Virus record (IMG/VR): IMGVR_UViG_3300043570_001741
Location: 64,001-128,000 of that record
DNA length: 64,000 nt
Source of the DNA: a virus
Direction: 5' to 3' (one strand)
Shown: positions 20,088 through 27,535 of the stretch, piece by piece
Numbering within the stretch: the first letter of the stretch is position 1
Layout: every line of letters begins with the position of its first letter
Position numbers and translations under genes: made by a program
The notes under the pieces: generated by a model
Told to the model about the DNA's origin: nothing
Seen by the model: the letters and a program-made list of their open reading frames with translations, nothing else
Database searches by the model: none

Positions 20088-20139
20088 TGTTGTTTATAGG
20101 CAACAGGGCTCTTGACATTTACTCCAGTTCTGTTAGAAT
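20088..20139 (+). promoter_or_regulatory. Early promoter with palindrome
   Basis: TGTTG-N8-CAACA 20088, TTGACA 20112, TAGAAT 20134. Confidence 0.8.
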
Positions 20140-20145
20140 GGACCA

Positions 20146-20463
20146 ATGATGAATAGAAAAAAGCGCTCTGACCGCAACCACGTTTTGTATCGGGTTATTT
20201 GTACTGATACTGGCGATTCTTATATTGGCCTAACCGTAGCACAAGGCCAGGCTTTTGTTCGCTCTGTTAAAGTTCGTTGGCAAAAGCATGTTAGCCGTGC
20301 TGTGCGTGAGGACAAGGATTGGTCAATGTGCCAATTCATCCGTGATAATGCGGAAGCTGAATTCAGATATGAAGTTCTGGAAATTGTACGTGGTAGAAAA
20401 CCAGCTCACCAACGTGAGCGTGAGTTGATTGCCGAATTGGAACCAACCTTAAATACCTTTTAA
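20146..20463 (+). CDS. GIY-YIG nuclease family protein
   Basis: VLY...SYIGLT, R..KH, E..LI....PTLN. Confidence 0.75.
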   Translation: MMNRKKRSDRNHVLYRVICTDTGDSYIGLTVAQGQAFVRSVKVRWQKHVSRAVREDKDWSMCQFIRDNAEAEFRYEVLEIVRGRKPAHQRERELIAELEPTLNTF

Positions 20464-20711: not shown

Positions 20712-21185
20712 ATGAACCTTATATTAGATATGCGGAAAAGTGACCGCAGGGATTTAATTGAAGCCTGCGTTAAGTTTTATTCGCAAGAATTGAAGATTGA
20801 CAAAAAAAGGTTCACCCTTGCTGTGTTCTCTAAAAAGGATTTAGCAAAAGACCATGCAGCCAATGGAGTTGCTATGAGACTGACCGATGGAATCTATGGA
20901 ATGGATTTAGATTCACGGCTCAGTATGGAAAAATTAATTGAAGTGATTGCACATGAAATGGTGCATATTAAGCAGTTCGCCACTGGCCAATTGAAATACA
21001 AAGGCCGCAGTTTATTCTGGCGTGGCGAAAAAGTTATTAGAAGTAGGATTAACTATTATGACCATCCTTGGGAAATTGAGGCATGGTCAAAAGAAAAGGT
21101 GCTAGCAGCTAAAGTGTTTAAACTTTGGATGAAAGCCGAGGATGTTCACAATGGAAAATATAACAGAAATAAAAGCAAAGCGTAG
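20712..21185 (+). CDS. Zn metallopeptidase-like protein (HExxH)
   Basis: IAHEMVHIKQ, PWEIEA. Confidence 0.75.
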   Translation: MNLILDMRKSDRRDLIEACVKFYSQELKIDKKRFTLAVFSKKDLAKDHAANGVAMRLTDGIYGMDLDSRLSMEKLIEVIAHEMVHIKQFATGQLKYKGRSLFWRGEKVIRSRINYYDHPWEIEAWSKEKVLAAKVFKLWMKAEDVHNGKYNRNKSKA

Positions 21186-21303
21186 TATATTGTTCAAGGA
21201 CTTACGTAGCCCGAAGTATCGCCAGCGTGTGGTCAATAGCAAGAAACAATATAACCGTAATGTTGAGAAACAAAATTTTAAAAAGCAAATCGATGGAACA
21301 TGA
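21151..21303 (+). CDS. Small basic ArfA-like protein (50 aa, not in ORF track)
   Basis: DLRSPKYRQRVVNSKKQYNR; GAGGA RBS upstream. Confidence 0.5.
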   Translation: MENITEIKAKRSILFKDLRSPKYRQRVVNSKKQYNRNVEKQNFKKQIDGT

Positions 21304-21628
21304 TGGTATCTTTTTCACCCCTGCAAATGATTACGATTTAGAGTTATCATTTTTTGATTTGAAAGAAAACCGCGGAACGCCAATTGATGGAAGTAAATAT
21401 GGTGACAAATACCATATTGCTTTCTTTAAAGGATTACCGGATGGTGAAGTGGTATTTGACGAATCATTTGAAGCTATCTTTGCCGACCCTGTGACTTATA
21501 TCAGAGGGCTGGTTGGGTGTGAATTGTTCGGATGCATTCTCAAAAAAACAACAACCTCAACAAAATGGTTCGAAGATTACCTCACAAGAACTAAAGAATC
21601 TGTTAAGCTACTTAATGAAAACTCTTAA
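21293..21628 (+). CDS. Hypothetical protein
   Basis: ORF overlapping the upstream stop. Confidence 0.55.
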   Translation: MEHDGIFFTPANDYDLELSFFDLKENRGTPIDGSKYGDKYHIAFFKGLPDGEVVFDESFEAIFADPVTYIRGLVGCELFGCILKKTTTSTKWFEDYLTRTKESVKLLNENS

Positions 21629-21639
21629 AGGAAACTGAA

Positions 21640-22155
21640 ATGCCTAATTGGTGTAGTAACTCTGTAAAAATTTCTGGCTCTAAAGAACAAATTGATGCCT
21701 TGGAACAATTCTTAAAAGAATCAAATGGTAAAGACTGGTTCGATTTCTTTCGACCTATTCCACCTGAATATAAAGAAGGTGAATTGTGGTATGGTTGGTC
21801 TATCAACAATTGGGGTTGCAAATGGAATTGTGATGCTCAAGATTGGTCAAGAGAAGATGTTGAGGATGAAGATGTATCAACGATTTCATTTTGGTTTGAT
21901 TCTCCTTGGGGTCCGCCAATTGCTTTATATGAAGCCGCTACTGAAGATGGTTATTATATTGAAGCATATTACCTTGAAGAAGGTATGGGCTTTGTAGGAA
22001 AGTTTGAAGATGGTTTTGATGATTATAATGAGTTTGATTTAGCAGACCCTGATTCTTTAGACCTCATTGATGATGATATTATTGAATTTTGGGATTTGAG
22101 AACACGCCTAGAAGATTGGCAAGATGAAAATCCACCGGAGGAAGATGATGAATAA
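21640..22155 (+). CDS. DUF1281/YubB ferredoxin-like fold protein
   Basis: MPNWCSN, NWGCKWN, FDSPWGPP. Confidence 0.7.
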   Translation: MPNWCSNSVKISGSKEQIDALEQFLKESNGKDWFDFFRPIPPEYKEGELWYGWSINNWGCKWNCDAQDWSREDVEDEDVSTISFWFDSPWGPPIALYEAATEDGYYIEAYYLEEGMGFVGKFEDGFDDYNEFDLADPDSLDLIDDDIIEFWDLRTRLEDWQDENPPEEDDE

Positions 22156-22357
22156 TACATTTTCTATTTTAATTGCAATTGTTGTAATTTTATTTCTCTT
22201 AATTGTTGCTCCTTTCTTAACAATTTGGTCTTTGAACACGCTTTTTCCTGTTTTGGAGATTCCGTACACATTTGAGACTTGGTCGGCAACAATTTTATTG
22301 ACAGCTGTGCTGCAATCTTCAAGCTTGAGTTTTAAAAATCGTAAATAAGGTGAAAAA

Positions 22358-22633
22358 ATGAGTGAAAAATTTGAATTTAAGACAAAAAAAGAGAAAAATT
22401 GGCTTTTGAGTGCTCTCCGTGAAAGTGAAGTGACTGTAAAATTCACAAAAAAAGACGGAAGTGAACGGACAATGATTTGTACTTTGAAAGAAGACAAAAT
22501 CCCGACTGAAAAATTGCCAAAAACTGCTGAAAAACAGAAAAATGAAGAAGTTGTTCCCGTTTTTGACCTTGAGAGTCAAGGTTGGCGTAGTTTTCGCTGG
22601 GACTCAATCAAAGAAATTCATTTTACAGTATAA
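22358..22633 (+). CDS. WYL_2/SH3-like beta-barrel protein
   Basis: VKFTKKDGSERTM.CTL, VFDLE..GWRSFR. Confidence 0.75.
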   Translation: MSEKFEFKTKKEKNWLLSALRESEVTVKFTKKDGSERTMICTLKEDKIPTEKLPKTAEKQKNEEVVPVFDLESQGWRSFRWDSIKEIHFTV

Positions 22634-22636
22634 ATA
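22629..22636 (+). promoter_or_regulatory. T4-type late promoter
   Basis: TATAAATA 10 nt upstream of tRNA. Confidence 0.65.
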
Positions 22637-22646
22637 GTAGCATTAC

Positions 22647-22721
22647 CGCAGGTAGGTCAAGTTGACCCGAATGGTCTCATAAGCCATATCGAGAGTGGAG
22701 CGTTACCACTACCTGCAACCA
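22647..22721 (+). tRNA. tRNA-fMet-like (CAT), atypical T-loop
   Basis: C1:A72 mismatch, CAT anticodon, ACCA end, T-loop AGCGTTA. Confidence 0.75.
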
Positions 22722-22741
22722 CATTTTTAGTATATTATAGC

Positions 22742-23191
22742 ATGTTACATTTAATAGAATCACTAACTGATAAATTTTTTGACTTGTTGAATCAAGATCC
22801 GGTACGCCCGAATATTCCACATGTGGACCGAATTGGTCCTAATAAAGATATTTTTGTTTTCCGTGATGCTGATGATAAAGTTAAAGCTATTACATGTGTG
22901 AGTTATCAACATTCAATTCCAACAAAGGAATCTGAATTATTTGAAAATACAGACACTCCTAACGTAGCCGTATTTTACACAATCTGGTCATATGTGCCAG
23001 GTGCTGGTCGTACATTGATTTTTGATGCGGTTCGCCACATTAAAGAGACAAGGCCGGAAATTACAAGATTTGTGACTTTAAGTCCAAAGACTGAAATGGC
23101 TAAACGTTTTCATACAAAGAATGGTGCAGGTGTTTATCGTGAAAACATCGAAACTGTTAATTATGAGTATGAAAAAGTGGAAAATACTTGA
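22742..23191 (+). CDS. GNAT-fold protein resembling malonyl-CoA decarboxylase catalytic core
   Basis: AVFYTI, FVTLSP, A..FH.KNGA. Confidence 0.5.
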   Translation: MLHLIESLTDKFFDLLNQDPVRPNIPHVDRIGPNKDIFVFRDADDKVKAITCVSYQHSIPTKESELFENTDTPNVAVFYTIWSYVPGAGRTLIFDAVRHIKETRPEITRFVTLSPKTEMAKRFHTKNGAGVYRENIETVNYEYEKVENT

Positions 23192-23221
23192 CCTTTTTAC
23201 TTGTAATACTAAAGTTTACGC

Positions 23222-23250
23222 TTGACAAATACTAAATAATAGACTATAAT
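23222..23250 (+). promoter_or_regulatory. Consensus sigma70 promoter of tRNA array (P1)
   Basis: TTGACA-17-TATAAT. Confidence 0.9.
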
Positions 23251-23256
23251 ACACAA

Positions 23257-23385
23257 ATGATGCAAAATTTAAGACTCTCACCGATAACGCTAAGTGCTAT
23301 GTCACCGACATGGCAGGCCAACTATCGTTGTGAGAATCATGGCTTTATTGGAACATCAAAGGATCCAGCAGAGGTTTGTGTTTAG
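23257..23385 (+). CDS. Putative leaderless attenuator leader peptide (42 aa, all 20 amino acids)
   Basis: MMQNLRLSPITLSAMSPTWQANYRCENHGFIGTSKDPAEVCV; ATG at predicted +1; 3' end complementary to terminator arm. Confidence 0.7.
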   Translation: MMQNLRLSPITLSAMSPTWQANYRCENHGFIGTSKDPAEVCV

Positions 23386-23422
23386 AATAAATTAGTAAAA
23401 TAGTTTTTTAATCACAAACCTC
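23371..23422 (+). promoter_or_regulatory. Antiterminator pairing
   Basis: GAGGTTTGTG (23371-23380) perfectly complementary to CACAAACCTC (23413-23422). Confidence 0.75.
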
Positions 23423-23452
23423 AGACCTAAAAAATCTGAGGTTTTTTGTTTT
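23416..23452 (+). terminator. Intrinsic terminator (attenuator) upstream of first array tRNA
   Basis: AAACCTCAGA-9nt-TCTGAGGTTT followed by TTTGTTTT. Confidence 0.85.
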
Positions 23453-23469
23453 GGGCATCGTCCCTTTTA

Positions 23470-23495
23470 GTTCTTTAAAAATTTGTAGAGTTAAT
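23470..23495 (+). promoter_or_regulatory. boxA-like element plus pairing arm (copy 1)
   Basis: GTTCTTTAAAAA then TTTGTAGAGTTAAT; complement at 26100-26118. Confidence 0.6.
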
Positions 23496-23499
23496 ATAT

Positions 23500-23573
23500 T
23501 CCCGAATGGTGTAGTGGTAGCACAGCAGACTTTGACTCTGTTAGTATAAGTTCGATTCTTATTTCGGGTGCCA
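23500..23573 (+). tRNA. tRNA-Gln(TTG)
   Basis: Cloverleaf, loop CTTTGAC, CCA. Confidence 0.9.
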
Positions 23574-23606
23574 TATAAAAACATATTGTGAAGTGTGTTT
23601 CTATAT

Positions 23607-23694
23607 GGAAGTGTGGTCGAGTGGTCTATGGCTCTAGTCTTGAAAACTAGCGATTCGAAAGGATCCGTGAGTTCGAATCTCACCGCTTCCGCCA
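23607..23694 (+). tRNA. tRNA-Ser(TGA)
   Basis: Loop CTTGAAA, long variable arm, GCCA. Confidence 0.93.
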
Positions 23695-23698
23695 AATT

Positions 23699-23787
23699 GG
23701 AGAGTGGGCAGGATGGTAATGCAGCAGATTGCTAATCTGTCATCGGATTAAACCGGTGAGTGGGTTCGATTCCCACACTCTCCGCCA
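23699..23787 (+). tRNA. tRNA-Ser(GCT)
   Basis: Loop TTGCTAA, long variable arm, GCCA. Confidence 0.92.
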
Positions 23788-23788
23788 T

Positions 23789-23864
23789 GTAGGTGTGACC
23801 TGAAAGGCTAGGGAGCGGATTGCAAATCCGTATAATGCAGGTTCGAGTCCTGTCACCTACTCCA
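23789..23864 (+). tRNA. tRNA-Cys(GCA)
   Basis: Loop TTGCAAA, TCCA end. Confidence 0.9.
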
Positions 23865-23881
23865 TTTGAAAACAAAAGTAT

Positions 23882-23942
23882 TGTTGTATAAAAACAACGA
23901 TGCTAAAATAGTTGTTGACTAAATGTGTGGTTCATGTATAAT
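23882..23942 (+). promoter_or_regulatory. Internal tRNA-array promoter (P2) with palindrome
   Basis: TGTTG-N8-CAACG 23882, TTGACT 23915, TATAAT 23937. Confidence 0.8.
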
Positions 23943-23949
23943 ACACACA

Positions 23950-23978
23950 TGTTATTTAAAAAGTTGTAGAGTTAATTT
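23950..23978 (+). promoter_or_regulatory. boxA-like element plus pairing arm (copy 2)
   Basis: TGTTATTTAAAAAGTTGTAGAGTTAATTT. Confidence 0.55.
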
Positions 23979-23980
23979 TT

Positions 23981-24055
23981 GCTCCGTTCGTCTATCGGTT
24001 AGGACGCTGCCCTTTCAAGGCGGAAAGACCAGTTCGATTCTGGTACGGAGTACCA
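23981..24055 (+). tRNA. tRNA-Glu(TTC)
   Basis: Loop CTTTCAA, CCA. Confidence 0.92.
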
Positions 24056-24176
24056 TTTGTTTTGCTGACGTAAGCGCCTGAGTAAACGTCAACTCTAACT
24101 AACTATGTACATAAACGGTAATGCTGCAGCTAATTCCGTTGAGCATAGCAAATAGTGCGTCAGCAAAACAAATGGT
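24052..24176 (+). ncRNA. Unknown structured RNA closed by a perfect 19-bp stem
   Basis: ACCATTTGTTTTGCTGACG / CGTCAGCAAAACAAATGGT with nested internal stems. Confidence 0.6.
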
Positions 24177-24181
24177 TGTTT

Positions 24182-24256
24182 GGAGGCATAACTTAACGGC
24201 TAAAGTAACTGGCTTTTAACCAGTAAATCAGAGTTCGATTCTCTGTGCCTCTACCA
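24182..24256 (+). tRNA. tRNA-Lys(TTT)
   Basis: Loop CTTTTAA, CCA. Confidence 0.9.
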
Positions 24257-24265
24257 GTAGAATTT

Positions 24266-24350
24266 GGAGATGCCGCCGTAATGGTATGGCAGGAGACTGT
24301 AAATCTTCCGACTTAGGTCACAATAGGTTCGATCCCTATCATCTCCACCA
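24266..24350 (+). tRNA. tRNA-Tyr(GTA)
   Basis: Loop CTGTAAA, variable arm, ACCA. Confidence 0.9.
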
Positions 24351-24354
24351 AATT

Positions 24355-24429
24355 GGTTTCAAAGTGTTCACGGACGCACGCTAGCTTGTCACGCTAGAAG
24401 AAGGGGATCGTTACCCCTTGAGACCGCCA
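24355..24429 (+). tRNA. tRNA-Asp(GTC)
   Basis: Loop TTGTCAC, GCCA, T-loop ATCGTTA. Confidence 0.87.
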
Positions 24430-24438
24430 AGTTTTTAT

Positions 24439-24513
24439 TCCACAGTAGCACAGCGGTAGTGCAGTTGACTGTTAATCAATTGGTCGTAGGTTCGATCCCT
24501 GCCTGTGGAGCCA
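24439..24513 (+). tRNA. tRNA-Asn(GTT)
   Basis: Loop CTGTTAA, GCCA. Confidence 0.93.
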
Positions 24514-24518
24514 ATATC

Positions 24519-24595
24519 GGGGACGTGATGGAATTGGTATACGTGTTGGTCTTAGAAGCCAAATTTTGTGAGTTCGAGTCTCACCGTCCCCACCA
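24519..24595 (+). tRNA. tRNA-Leu(TAG), short variable loop
   Basis: Loop CTTAGAA, ACCA. Confidence 0.88.
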
Positions 24596-24599
24596 ATTT

Positions 24600-24673
24600 G
24601 CCCTTTTAGTATAATGGTATTACGCCTGTTTTGTAATCAGGTTACGGCAGTTCGATTCTGTCAAGGGGCACCA
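24600..24673 (+). tRNA. tRNA-Thr(TGT)
   Basis: Loop TTTGTAA, ACCA. Confidence 0.9.
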
Positions 24674-24678
24674 ATTTT

Positions 24679-24752
24679 CTCGGTATAGTTTAATGGTAGA
24701 ATTCGTGGTTTGGGACCATGTGATGGAAGTTCGATTCTTCCTACCGAGACCA
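24679..24752 (+). tRNA. tRNA-Pro(TGG)
   Basis: Loop TTTGGGA, ACCA. Confidence 0.9.
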
Positions 24753-24757
24753 GTTAT

Positions 24758-24831
24758 GGGGAATTAGTATAATGGGATTACGGCAGCTTTGCAAGTTGTT
24801 TATGGGAGTTCGATTCTCCCATTCTCCACCA
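24758..24831 (+). tRNA. tRNA-Ala(TGC)
   Basis: Loop TTTGCAA, G3:U70, ACCA. Confidence 0.9.
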
Positions 24832-24835
24832 TTCA

Positions 24836-24910
24836 GGTTCAGTAGCACAGCGGTAGTGCAATTGCTTCATACGCAATAGGTCGTTGGCTCGAATCCAACC
24901 TGAACCACCA
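24836..24910 (+). tRNA. tRNA-Met(CAT), elongator-like
   Basis: Loop TTCATAC, ACCA. Confidence 0.85.
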
Positions 24911-24916
24911 AGTTAC

Positions 24917-24991
24917 GGGCGATTAGTAAAATGAATATTACACAAGGCTACGAACCTTGAAGTGGGAGTTTGATTCTCTCATCGCCCTCCA
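24917..24991 (+). tRNA. tRNA-Arg(ACG)
   Basis: Loop CTACGAA, CCA. Confidence 0.87.
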
Positions 24992-24994
24992 GAA

Positions 24995-25192
24995 CCAGCT
25001 AAGGTAACGCTTGGCTACTGTGACACGCAGGAAGTGAAGTGAGTTCGTTACTCAAGTGTGGTACTACTCTTACCGAAGTAGCGTTGGCAATACGAGAATT
25101 CTTTTTGGTCGGGAAGCGGGTGGAAGGTACATGGGAGAGGTATGATAGCGTCATATCTTTTCGTACTATAATTACCGCCGCAGAAAGAAAGC
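24995..25192 (+). ncRNA. Unknown multi-hairpin RNA within tRNA array
   Basis: Four short hairpins then a long interrupted stem; GC-richer than other spacers. Confidence 0.55.
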
Positions 25193-25195
25193 AAT

Positions 25196-25270
25196 GCCGT
25201 TGTAGCTCAGAGGAAGAGCATTCGCTTGATAAGCGAAAGGCCGACATTTCGAAATTGTCCAACGGTACCA
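25196..25270 (+). tRNA. tRNA-Ile(GAT)
   Basis: Loop TTGATAA, ACCA. Confidence 0.88.
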
Positions 25271-25275
25271 ATTTT

Positions 25276-25349
25276 ATCTCGCTGGTGTAATGGCAGCACG
25301 ATGGTCTCCAAAACCATTAGTCGGGGTTCGAGTCCCTGGCGGAATGCCA
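25276..25349 (+). tRNA. tRNA-Trp(CCA)
   Basis: Loop CTCCAAA, GCCA, one acceptor mismatch. Confidence 0.85.
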
Positions 25350-25368
25350 AGTTTTAAAGGTTGTCAAT

Positions 25369-25857
25369 ATGAAAAAATTCGATATAGAAGAAGTCAAACA
25401 GTTCCTTGCAAAACAAGGACCAAACACCAAAGTATATCTTGGTGCTGATTCAGAAAGAATCAGAGTGAATGAAGTTTGGTATGCTGACTACGCTTTAGCT
25501 GTTGTAGTTCATATTGATGGTTGTCATGGTTGTAAGATTTTTGGTTTTGTTGACCGTGAATTAGATTACGACCATAAAAAAAGTAAACCTGCTATGCGTC
25601 TAATGACAGAGGTGTACAAGGTTTCAGAATTGTTCCAATCACTACAGGATGTGTTGGAAGATTATCATGTTGAAGTCCATTTGGACTTAAATAAATCAGA
25701 TGAGTTCGGTAGTTCTTGTGTTGTTCAGCAAGCAATTGGTTATATCAAAGGTACATGTAACATGACACCAATGGTTAAACCTGATGCACCTGCGGCTTCA
25801 TTCTGTGCAGACCGTTTAAAACGGATTCTAGCAGAACAAGAATTGTCAACTATATAA
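25369..25857 (+). CDS. RNase H-like YkuK/DUF458 family protein inside tRNA array
   Basis: YLGADS, RLMTEV, EVHLDLN, KPDAPAASFCADR. Confidence 0.8.
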   Translation: MKKFDIEEVKQFLAKQGPNTKVYLGADSERIRVNEVWYADYALAVVVHIDGCHGCKIFGFVDRELDYDHKKSKPAMRLMTEVYKVSELFQSLQDVLEDYHVEVHLDLNKSDEFGSSCVVQQAIGYIKGTCNMTPMVKPDAPAASFCADRLKRILAEQELSTI

Positions 25858-25863
25858 AAATAT

Positions 25864-25937
25864 GCGGGATTAGTTTAGGGGCAAAACAGCAGATTTCCAA
25901 TCTTCGGTCATCGGTTCGATTCCGATATCCCGCTCCA
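25864..25937 (+). tRNA. tRNA-Gly(TCC)
   Basis: Loop TTTCCAA, TCCA. Confidence 0.9.
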
Positions 25938-25943
25938 GTCAAT

Positions 25944-26019
25944 GCAGTTGTTAGTGTAAAGGTTAACACCACGGATTGTGATTCCGTTAATATGGGTTCG
26001 ATTCCCATACTTCTGCCCA
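25944..26019 (+). tRNA. tRNA-His(GTG)
   Basis: Loop TTGTGAT, G-1:C73, CCA. Confidence 0.85.
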
Positions 26020-26023
26020 ATTC

Positions 26024-26098
26024 ACATCGTTAGCTCAGCGGTAGAGCAGGGCCCTTACAAGGCCAAGGTCAAAAGTTCAATCCTTTTACGATGTACCA
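26024..26098 (+). tRNA. tRNA-Val(TAC)
   Basis: Loop CTTACAA, ACCA. Confidence 0.88.
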
Positions 26099-26118
26099 AA
26101 TTAACTCTACAAATTTTT
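26098..26118 (+). repeat. Reverse complement of the two leader arms (long-range pairing)
   Basis: AAATTAACTCTACAAATTTTT; 19/19 complementary to 23477-23495, 20/21 to 23958-23978. Confidence 0.8.
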
Positions 26119-26193
26119 CTGGCCTTAGTATAATGGATAATACAGTTGCCTTCTAAGCAATCAATACAGGTTCGATTCCTGTAGGCCGGGCCA
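26119..26193 (+). tRNA. tRNA-Arg(TCT)
   Basis: Loop CTTCTAA, GCCA. Confidence 0.9.
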
Positions 26194-26198
26194 ATTAC

Positions 26199-26274
26199 AC
26201 GCTTGTAGCTCAATGGTTAGAGCAGGAAACTCATAATTTCTTGGTTGGGGGTTCGAGTCCCTTCGAGCGTACCA
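26199..26274 (+). tRNA. tRNA-Ile2(CAT) or Met
   Basis: Loop CTCATAA, ACCA; third CAT tRNA in window. Confidence 0.82.
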
Positions 26275-26284
26275 TATATAATTA

Positions 26285-27031
26285 ATGTCCGTGAAAAATC
26301 TAATCTTTTCATTTCTACTGTTAACAACAAATGCCTTTGGTGTGAGTTTAACTGCTCACACTTGGTTAGTTGCGGATGGTGACGGTAGAATCATACAAAG
26401 TGAAAATGGCCAAGAACTAAGGTCGATTGCCAGTATCACTAAACTTATGACTGCAATGGTCATAATAGATGCTGGTCAGAATCCAAAAGAGAAACTCGGA
26501 AATTTAACAAGAGAGCAACATATTCAAATGGCTCTTGTTATGTCAAGCAATGAATCTGCTATTACTTTATGTGATAATTATCCAGGTGGTAAATCAAGTT
26601 GTATTAGGGATATGAATTCTAAAGCTGTTGCTATGAATATGCCTAACACCAAATTTGTTGAAGCATCTGGACTAAGTCCGATGAATATCAGTACAGGAAA
26701 AGATTTGATTGAATTGGTGCTTGCTGCAAGTTATTATCCCGATATCATTCAGGCTAGTAAAACTGCTCAAGTGAAGATTCAAGTTAAAAAGAAGTGGTTC
26801 TTTTTCAACAATACGAATCCAATTATTGGTAAACGCCACGATTTCATAGTAAGTAAAACAGGATGGACAAATGCGGCCGGTGGTTGTATCGTAATGTTAT
26901 TGGATACTGATATTGGCCGCAGGCTTGTTGTGGTACTCGGTTCTAAGAATACTAGAACACGAATACCAGAAGCTGAGTTTATTGCTTTACAGAATAATTG
27001 GCAACCACAACCAAATACCTTGGCTCATTAA
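26285..27031 (+). CDS. Peptidase S11 D-Ala-D-Ala carboxy/endopeptidase (PBP7-like)
   Basis: Signal peptide, SITK, SSN, KTG motifs. Confidence 0.88.
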   Translation: MSVKNLIFSFLLLTTNAFGVSLTAHTWLVADGDGRIIQSENGQELRSIASITKLMTAMVIIDAGQNPKEKLGNLTREQHIQMALVMSSNESAITLCDNYPGGKSSCIRDMNSKAVAMNMPNTKFVEASGLSPMNISTGKDLIELVLAASYYPDIIQASKTAQVKIQVKKKWFFFNNTNPIIGKRHDFIVSKTGWTNAAGGCIVMLLDTDIGRRLVVVLGSKNTRTRIPEAEFIALQNNWQPQPNTLAH

Positions 27032-27535
27032 CAAAGCAGATAAAGCACCAACTACTATACTTGCCAAATACAATGCAGGTGCTACAGCTAAGATACTAGC
27101 TGATAATAGAACAATTGAAATCTGAAAACCTGATCCTGCAAATGTCATCCAAGGACCAGATTTGCGAATTTCATCACGTTCAGCTTCAAGTGCCTTTGCT
27201 TTAGCAAATAGTTCTTTTTTGCCTTCACCCGTTGCAGGTTCAGATTCATATCTATTGATTTTTGCAGTTAACTTATCTGCCTTCTCAAATTGTTTTCTGT
27301 CAATAGCATCATCTCTAGCCATTTCAGCAAGAGTCTGTTTAATTGATTTTGCCTGAAAGAATGCCCAAGTGTCATTAGCCTTAATTGTATTGTTCAGTAC
27401 CTTAGAACTATTGCCACTAGCAATATAAGTATTAATGGCCAACAAAGCAGCCAAAACGGTAATAAGCCATCCCGCTTTGTCTTTGATTTGTGCTTCTCTT
27501 TCGCTTCTACTAAGTGGTTTTTTTTCTTCCGCCAT
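26987..27535 (-). CDS. DUF4337-like membrane protein
   Basis: AALLAI, DTWAFFQAKSIKQ, QISIVLLSAS. Confidence 0.7.
   Translation of the reverse strand: MAEEKKPLSRSEREAQIKDKAGWLITVLAALLAINTYIASGNSSKVLNNTIKANDTWAFFQAKSIKQTLAEMARDDAIDRKQFEKADKLTAKINRYESEPATGEGKKELFAKAKALEAERDEIRKSGPWMTFAGSGFQISIVLLSASILAVAPALYLASIVVGALSALLMSQGIWLWLPIIL

Follow-up and report, generated by a model that had tools for sequence, protein, structure and literature searches.

What decides when a phage makes its own tRNAs? Phage tRNA arrays are usually explained by codon usage, and to our knowledge the control of their expression is essentially unknown. More recently, such arrays have been explained as replacing host tRNAs that are destroyed during infection or by defence nucleases (PMC11555353). 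The question is raised here by a short element in the genome of an uncultured phage, in which a promoter, an open reading frame (ORF) that uses every amino acid, and a terminator with a predicted alternative fold stand directly in front of a tRNA array. An initial annotation, made from the sequence alone, had described this element as a candidate attenuator that senses tRNAs of every kind.

Setting and parts of the element

The window, by which we mean the whole stretch of 64,000 nucleotides that was analysed, corresponds to bases 64001-128000 of a 157.7-kb IMG/VR viral contig with an estimated completeness of 95%. With ribonucleotide reductase, baseplate wedge and tail proteins among its genes it looks like part of a T4-like myovirus; the G+C content of the source phage is ~38%. 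The phage genome carries 23 tRNA genes for 19 amino acids. There is no tRNA-Phe among them, yet a Phe codon is kept in the leader ORF. The 22 tRNAs that the initial annotation placed behind the element do follow its terminator, but the 23rd, a tRNA-Met (22647-22721), sits upstream, so that the tRNA region begins before the switch. Between this tRNA-Met and the element lies a 149-codon gene, and a gene with a WYL_2 domain is found shortly upstream of the element, both in the window and in many contigs of its family. The features to which we refer are as follows.

23222-23250, plus strand: promoter P1, a sigma-70 -35 box, 17-nt spacer and -10 box (12 of 12 consensus positions matched)
23257-23385, plus strand: 42-codon leader ORF of leaderless type, followed by TAG, every amino acid represented (ORF call, family conservation, pN/pS)
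23296-23314, plus strand: hairpin H1, codons 14-20, candidate RNA-polymerase pause hairpin (RNAalifold consensus, 16 lineages)
23315-23345, plus strand: hairpin H2, overlapping the conserved peptide core (RNAalifold consensus)
23371-23380, plus strand: arm A, 5' strand of the putative antiterminator, in the last ORF codons (10 of 10 nucleotides complementary to arm B)
23413-23422, plus strand: arm B, the shared strand, predicted to pair with arm A or with the terminator 3' arm (folding; preference for its own arm A, P = 8e-5)
23417-23452, plus strand: intrinsic terminator with a 9-bp stem, a 9-nt loop and a U-run (folding, stem covariation)
23470-23485, plus strand: boxA-like motif between the terminator and the first tRNA (conserved position in the family)
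23500-23573, plus strand: tRNA-Gln(UUG), first array gene behind the switch (ARAGORN, Rfam)
23915-23942, plus strand: internal promoter P2, a paralogue of P1 without a leader (11 of 12 consensus positions matched)

P1 has the perfect TTGACA-17-TATAAT sequence that had been reported, and it is the sole perfect promoter match within 21000-27500, a region in which the total count of promoter-like sites is not above that of shuffled sequences. In the window the ATG of the leader ORF, at 23257, follows the -10 box by 6 nt, which makes it plausible that transcription starts at the A of this ATG. Across the family the ATG stands 5-9 nt after the -10 box, and no Shine-Dalgarno sequence precedes it in the window or in any family copy. 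A P1-like promoter with the same layout is present in 21 of the 22 family members; the remaining one, L094, has a T4-late-like TATAAATA box instead. A second gene start of leaderless type occurs in the same genome at 20112-20146.

Distribution and family

Relatives were collected from lake and other metagenomes by peptide searches followed by growing alignments. The resulting family comprises 22 copies in ~12 lineages (<75% peptide identity), all from uncultured freshwater phages and always upstream of a tRNA array, with a common order of promoter, ATG, ORF, terminator, boxA-like motif and tRNA array. The short ORF thus lies at the 5' end of the transcript of the genes taken to be regulated in the window, with the same layout in ~12 lineages. 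When related phages were compared, as the initial annotation had recommended, they were seen to keep the ORF, its all-20 composition (with compensating changes), the two pairing arms and the position before tRNA arrays.

The neighbouring 149-residue gene has hundreds of relatives on viral contigs, mostly inside tRNA arrays, and the element is found at the same place solely beside the closest of these (88% identity). DNA and protein searches of cultured phages gave no relative of the element, all peptide matches having E values of at least 3, and a six-frame profile search of the phage genome gave no second family copy. Four long repetitive proteins (P0003-P0006) that matched the peptide profile were discarded, since their scores sum many weak repeats. 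An Rfam scan of 22000-27000, with E values up to 1, returned tRNAs and chance matches only.

Coding character of the leader ORF

The ORF has the 42 codons, 20 amino acids and 32 distinct codons originally described; the probability of at least 32 distinct codons in 42 is P = 0.013. Its length is 41-48 codons in 21 of the 22 sequences. The exception, L082, is a 607-nt low-coverage contig in which an ORF of 67 codons lacks arm A. The reading frame is open in all copies despite amino-acid divergence of up to ~55%. For the lineage to which the window belongs, nine haplotypes were compared; pN/pS is 0.27 in the ORF frame and 0.55 and 1.09 in the other two, and the variable sites fall 15 times at codon position 3, nine times at position 1 and seven times at position 2. 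Two of these haplotypes have a one-codon insertion, and in-frame insertions or deletions of one to four codons separate the more distant lineages. These signs suggest that the ORF is very likely translated.

What kind of peptide would it encode? No Pfam family matches it. A role as the precursor of a ribosomally synthesised and modified peptide (RiPP) was considered and dropped, there being no modifying enzymes nearby, as was a role as a toxic small peptide, the leader peptide having no hydrophobic stretch. The initial annotation had expected a peptide free to diverge. This expectation did not hold: a core is conserved across all lineages, and it overlaps the two conserved RNA hairpins, H1 and H2. 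A conserved core is unusual for the leader of a pure sensor. The core resembles no ribosome-arrest motif of the SecM or TnaC type that is known to us. In H1, two pairs show compensatory changes (CG in 8 and UA in 5; UA in 9 and CG in 3). The pairs of H2 are mostly invariant or show wobble changes only, giving weak covariation support. Since both hairpins overlap the core, part of the peptide conservation may reflect a constraint on the RNA, or the reverse. The two hairpins could pause the polymerase until a ribosome arrives, as in the trp and his leaders.

Selection on the amino-acid composition

How unusual is an ORF of this length that contains every amino acid? The proposal in the initial annotation would have lost much of its force if random 42-codon windows commonly did so, and they do not: the all-20 composition is rare, at 0.3-0.5%. 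It is found in 0.46% of the 42-residue windows in the long ORFs of this genome, in 0.33% of all its stop-free windows, and in 2 of its 161 short ATG ORFs. Within the family, 18 of 21 peptides contain all 20 amino acids. The other three each lack a single residue type, which is Val in lineages L112 and L116 and His in L090, a single-contig variant.

Two tests address whether this composition is maintained as the peptide changes. In the first, residues were shuffled inside each column of the peptide alignment, a procedure that keeps the conservation of each column and breaks the links between columns; all 20 amino acids are present in 10 of the 11 representatives, whereas shuffled alignments have a mean of 4.2 such peptides (P = 1e-4, with 2 of 20,000 shuffles reaching 10). 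In the second, a spanning tree served as an approximate phylogeny, and its edges with at least five differences were resampled by redrawing the differing positions from the variable positions of the family; the full set of 20 persists along 13 of 15 such long edges, where 5.3 were expected (0 of 20,000 simulations, P < 5e-5), the P values of both tests being rough because extant sequences are taken as ancestors and replacement as random. In direction the tests are clear, and they point to selection for the all-20 composition.

The compensating changes can be seen in individual residues. His occupies position 7 in most lineages and in L092; in the window, position 7 is Leu and His is at position 28. 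Pro is at position 27 in L027 and is lost there in its close relative L029, which gains two Pro residues at 36-37. Lineages without Asp in the conserved core carry Asp elsewhere. Whole lineages (L112 and L116) have dispensed with Val and with no other residue; in most lineages Val is encoded inside or beside arm A.

The predicted antiterminator and terminator helices

The 10 of 10 pairing between 23371-23380 and 23413-23422 is real, and the resulting helix is contained in the minimum-energy fold of 23257-23455 (-56 kcal/mol; z = -4.4 compared with shuffles). The intrinsic terminator said to overlap arm B is present as well. Its stem, formed by 23417-23425 with 23435-23443, has an energy of ~-12 kcal/mol and is followed by a U-run at 23444-23452; it is missed by a simple scan because its loop is 9 nt. 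Two characteristics of leader-peptide attenuators are thereby found, namely mutually exclusive helices that share one strand, and an intrinsic terminator upstream of the genes taken to be regulated. When both conformers were folded, as had been suggested, their energies lay within a few kcal/mol of each other in all 16 lineages, as is expected for a switch.

A single alignment is unusable for the A:B helix, as short and long C-terminal variants place arm A in different columns, and duplex energies together with a permutation test were used in its place. The A:B duplex of the window has an energy of -17.5 kcal/mol, compared with -9.2 +/- 2.7 kcal/mol for shuffles. When the final 48 nt of the ORF were paired with the 5' region of the terminator, the best duplex came to -15 to -26 kcal/mol in 16 of 16 lineages, and to just -2 to -12 kcal/mol when the first and middle parts of the ORF were used; shuffles of arm A are weaker in every lineage (z -1.3 to -4.4). 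Arm B also prefers the arm A of its own lineage. Over 13 lineages the summed energy is -258.5 kcal/mol, against -213 +/- 11 kcal/mol when the arms are reassigned (P = 8e-5). In the terminator stem, 6 of 11 pairs are changed on both sides, and none of 500 shuffles reaches its covariation score. Both the antiterminator and the terminator pairs therefore covary among the relatives, as the attenuator proposal predicted.

Matched changes in the A:B helix take several forms. One A-U pair of the window is G-C elsewhere; the T run of arm A and the A run of arm B have two, three or four members according to lineage; and L112 and L116 have C-G in place of a T-A pair. Pairing is preserved even though arm A encodes a changing set of residues (Val, Phe, Ser, Asp), which implies that the constraint in this part of the ORF is on the RNA.

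Measured in 15 lineages, the distance from the stop codon to the U-run is 48-58 nt. Arm A falls on the last four codons in the short variants, the window among them, and a ribosome halted at the stop codon would there block the antiterminator strand. In the variants with a long C-terminus (L093, L095, L112, L116 and L118), some 13-18 nt separate the stop codon from the end of the arm A core, which a ribosome at the stop codon would cover only marginally.

The array behind the proposed switch, and promoters that would bypass it

A boxA-like motif of 13-16 nt follows the terminator in every family member whose sequence extends that far. In L093 and L114 it is one base away from the consensus of the E. 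coli rrn boxA, and a degenerate copy follows P2. In the window tRNA-Gln begins 48 nt beyond the terminator, at 23500, which agrees with the distance of about 50 nt first given. Wherever the sequence reaches a tRNA, tRNA-Gln(UUG) is the first, with the exception of L100, which has tRNA-Ser. Where there is enough flanking sequence, as in L002 (24 tRNAs) and L029 (27 tRNAs), the tRNAs that follow the leader include at least one for each of the 20 amino acids.

The internal promoter P2, matching 11 of 12 consensus positions, is where it had been placed, and would allow tRNA-Glu and the genes beyond it to be transcribed independently of the switch. The P1 and P2 units have a start region and a pre-tRNA leader motif in common. 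No promoter is recognisable between the terminator and tRNA-Gln in the window and L093, so that the genes from tRNA-Gln to tRNA-Cys would there depend on read-through; in the window, solely tRNA-Gln, two tRNA-Ser and tRNA-Cys would rely on the switch alone. In L094, L095, L111 and L113 a consensus promoter stands directly after the terminator. Such constitutive promoters, both P2 and those found behind the terminator in four lineages, would bypass the switch partly or wholly, and so limit its reach.

Discussion

We consider it probable, if well short of certain, that the element is an attenuator placed ahead of the phage tRNA array, leaderless and ribosome-mediated, and that it samples all amino acids. 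The reading put forward at the outset, that a ribosome on the leader sets the outcome, is supported by the conservation of the family, by the apparent selection on composition and by the covariation of the pairing arms. How would such a device work? Host RNA polymerase would start at, or a few nt from, the ATG, giving a leaderless mRNA. A ribosome would load at the 5' end of this transcript and translate the ORF of 41-48 codons, while H1 and H2 may pause the polymerase so that the ribosome catches up. If translation ran smoothly to the stop codon, the ribosome would unwind or cover arm A, arm B would form the terminator, and the transcript would end at the U-run. If the ribosome were slow, absent, or stalled in roughly the first 34 codons, arm A would instead pair with arm B once this was made, blocking the terminator, and the polymerase would pass the boxA-like site into the tRNA genes. 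Transcription yields arm A first, then arm B and last the 3' arm of the terminator, so that an arm A free of ribosomes should form the antiterminator first and lead to read-through. Slow decoding of any amino acid, with the probable exception of Val, would then turn the array on, and unimpaired translation would damp it. A control loop of this kind would be self-limiting.

Transcripts that arrive from upstream genes carry the ATG internally, with no ribosome-binding site, and would read through by default, so that the switch would act only on transcripts from P1. Leaderless initiation is usually weak in Proteobacteria. If the default fold of an untranslated leader gives read-through, this weakness means that the terminator might seldom be used.

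Which amino acids could such a leader sense? The number of residue types in the sensing zone upstream of arm A is 17-20, depending on the ribosome footprint that is assumed, with Val, Phe, Gly, Ile, Lys and Asp sometimes borderline. The initial annotation had set Val apart, its codons lying in the pairing arm and probably escaping detection. That Val alone is lost from whole lineages is in keeping with this idea, but Val is not a special case in the window: Lys and Asp have no codons there other than those found within ~12 nt of arm A. A stall at any of these Lys, Asp or Val codons, all within ~12 nt of arm A or inside it, would be too near the arm and would mimic the termination state. Classical attenuators need runs of codons for their sensitivity. 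The leader ORF has no codon runs and none of the clustering of regulatory codons that is typical of classical attenuators, most amino acids occurring one to three times (range one to four), so that any single stall may be brief. Nor does it favour codons that tRNAs of the phage can read: 17 of its 42 codons are matched exactly (P = 0.5), and 33 of 42 when wobble is allowed (P = 0.08).

Could the promoter, ORF and terminator instead make up a stand-alone gene that merely adjoins the array, and whose small protein product acts in trans, perhaps on tRNAs or in translation? The A:B hairpin would then be a 3' structure of the mRNA, and the composition would reflect the role of the peptide. Such a gene would account for the conserved length of the ORF and for a peptide core common to all lineages, and the four lineages with a separate tRNA promoter after the terminator suggest that the unit can be a closed transcription unit. 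One would not expect it, however, to preserve through matched changes a helix in competition with the terminator of the same unit, and the free variation of the residues in arm A, with pairing kept, is difficult to reconcile with it. The tRNAs of the window and L093 lack a post-terminator promoter of their own, the peptide has no Pfam match, and we know of no 42-residue peptide whose function requires all 20 amino acids with compensating replacements. We therefore think this explanation unlikely. In another rival, the element would be a structured non-coding leader or small RNA with an incidental open frame, and the conserved hairpins would be what matters, whether for RNA processing or for making a stable RNA. 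The T4 tRNA cluster, which includes stable RNA species other than tRNAs, offers a model for it; the structure is strong (z = -4.4), H1 shows compensatory changes, and among close relatives the 3' part has 3 variable sites in 129, compared with 22 in 114 in the 5' part of the ORF. Against this stand a frame that remains open at 41-48 codons in 21 of 22 copies (67 in L082) through up to ~55% amino-acid divergence, insertions and deletions that are in frame, an excess of synonymous changes, and a composition signal that exists at the protein level alone; no Rfam family is matched either, at E values up to 1. We regard a non-coding role as very improbable.

A rival of a different kind accepts the attenuator and changes what it reads. 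In place of individual tRNAs, it might sense timing or the general capacity for translation (free 70S ribosomes, initiator tRNA, the speed of coupling), with leaderless initiation as the sensed step and the diverse composition secondary. That the leaderless layout is the most strictly conserved feature of the element would then be expected, as would a leader without codon runs whose codons are unmatched to the phage's tRNAs; the other leaderless-type gene start in the genome (20112-20146) may be counted on the same side. What general capacity leaves unexplained are the compensating changes that keep all 20 amino acids, together with the complete tRNA sets behind the leaders, and for these reasons we judge it improbable. 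Where the array itself supplies tRNAs for all 20, as in L002 and L029, an all-20 leader makes sense as an overall test of decoding. We put forward, tentatively and as a serious possibility rather than an expectation, a pan-amino-acid sensor in which a stall at almost any codon would turn on a complete replacement set of tRNAs and smooth translation would turn it off.

A conserved leader ORF with codons for every amino acid, linked to what would be a conditional transcription stop, suggests that the phage probably makes its tRNAs when protein synthesis slows. If the sensor reading is true, the tRNA supply of the phage would be self-regulating and would respond to depletion of host tRNAs, including depletion by a tRNA-cleaving defence; a link to anticodon nucleases, which the initial annotation had offered as an example, is speculation. 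The element would also be the first attenuator known to control tRNA genes, the first with a general rather than an amino-acid-specific read-out, and a natural case of leaderless translation serving the coupling of transcription and translation. A literature search that took in few of the subscription journals found no report of leader-peptide control of tRNA genes or of an all-amino-acid leader. For practical purposes, the ~230 nt of the element would make a compact and testable reporter of global decoding speed. Further elements of the kind may be sought by a simple signature, the composition rule that ~45 codons include all 20 amino acids and that compensating changes preserve the set.

Comparison with known systems

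The closest counterparts are the leaders of amino-acid operons (trpL, hisL, pheL, thrL and the multivalent ilvGMEDA leader). The phage element shares with these a short 5' ORF, an antiterminator and a terminator with a common strand, leader hairpins that could pause the polymerase and, in its short variants, a stop codon so placed that a finishing ribosome would disable the antiterminator. There are differences as well. The amino-acid-operon leaders have runs of regulatory codons, where the phage leader has every amino acid once to a few times; they are led by Shine-Dalgarno sequences, where the phage leader is leaderless; and their targets are biosynthetic enzymes, where the phage element would control phage tRNAs. 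A conserved peptide core also sets the phage leader apart. In trp, the absence of translation leads to termination, whereas the phage element would by default be read through. The pyrBI leader, with an ORF of 44 codons, is similar in length, and there too the outcome is set by the distance between ribosome and polymerase. The pyrBI ribosome melts the terminator and so brings about read-through; the phage ORF ends ~30 nt before its terminator, and the opposite sign is predicted.

Two other systems invite comparison. Like the phage element, rrn leaders, which act through Nus-factor antitermination, have tandem promoters (P1 and P2) and a boxA-like motif between the promoter region and a long array of structured RNAs, the likeness of the phage motif to boxA being putative; they have no translated ORF and no attenuator. 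T-box riboswitches share the principle that the status of tRNA decides between terminator and antiterminator. Unlike the phage element they sense one tRNA, by base pairing and without a ribosome, and they control synthetase or amino-acid genes. No T-box was matched within 22000-27000 (Rfam, E values up to 1), and no other non-tRNA family rose above threshold there. On the evidence of its sequence, the phage element corresponds in its parts and its logic to a leader-peptide attenuator; it follows an unusual design rule that has statistical support, and it would act on a new class of target.

Other starts resembling that of the leader

The unit of P1, the promoter of the 42-codon leader, and that of P2, the internal promoter 5' of tRNA-Glu, are identical in sequence from the -10 box to the ATG and have a pre-tRNA leader motif in common; P2 (region 23915-23980) is a paralogue of P1. 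The P2 unit lacks the ORF-terminator insert of ~215 nt found in the P1 unit, and the ATG 3' of P2 opens a frame of only 6 codons. Starts of a similar kind are found at two further places.

20112-20463, second leaderless-type start, with a near-consensus promoter and ATGATG 6 nt 3' of the -10 box
G000:C1:29747-29900, outside the window, further perfect consensus promoter

The ATGATG start opens a 105-codon ORF, for which a weak GIY-YIG match (E=0.0025) falls below the Pfam cutoff. At the locus outside the window, the promoter is followed by a start motif identical to that of P1 and P2 and then by a G+C-rich structured stretch, where the frame has only 23 codons; this locus may thus be a small RNA gene.

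Variation around the leader and within the array

22358-22633, gene with a WYL_2 domain (E=1e-17), a short distance upstream of the leader
24992-25195, spacer of ~200 nt between tRNA-Arg(ACG) and tRNA-Ile
25369-25857, gene of 162 codons within the tRNA array, flanked by tRNA-Trp and tRNA-Gly

The WYL_2-domain gene is also present in many contigs of the leader family, a case of conserved synteny. One member of this family, the low-coverage 607-nt contig L082 (391-594), retains the promoter and the first 36 leader codons and is divergent past codon 36, giving an ORF of 67 codons in total without arm A, the 5' antiterminator strand. Either recombination produced this variant or the contig was assembled from unrelated pieces as a chimera.

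The ~200-nt spacer, which recurs near-identically, base for base, at a different place in the array of the distant relative L009 (6450-6730), matched no Rfam family and is probably a structured non-tRNA RNA. In Pfam, the 162-codon gene matches an RNase H-like domain at E=2e-14. Between tRNA-Val and tRNA-Arg(UCU), the close relative L002 (9778-9960) has tRNA-Phe and tRNA-Leu(UAA), whereas the window has a spacer of only 20 nt (26099-26118), so both tRNAs have been lost in the window's phage. No tRNA-Phe was found anywhere in its genome.

A boxA-like motif and a recurring 14-nt motif

23470-23485, plus strand, boxA-like motif 5' of tRNA-Gln
23951-23963, degenerate boxA-like copy 3' of P2
26100-26113, minus strand, inverted 14-nt motif between tRNA-Val and tRNA-Arg(UCU)

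The boxA-like motif 5' of tRNA-Gln is kept in all relatives whose sequence extends that far. The 14-nt motif lies directly 3' of it and occurs a second time 3' of P2. Taken together, the boxA-like motif, its degenerate copy and the recurring and inverted 14-nt motif suggest both long-range leader-trailer pairing and Nus antitermination like that of rrn operons.
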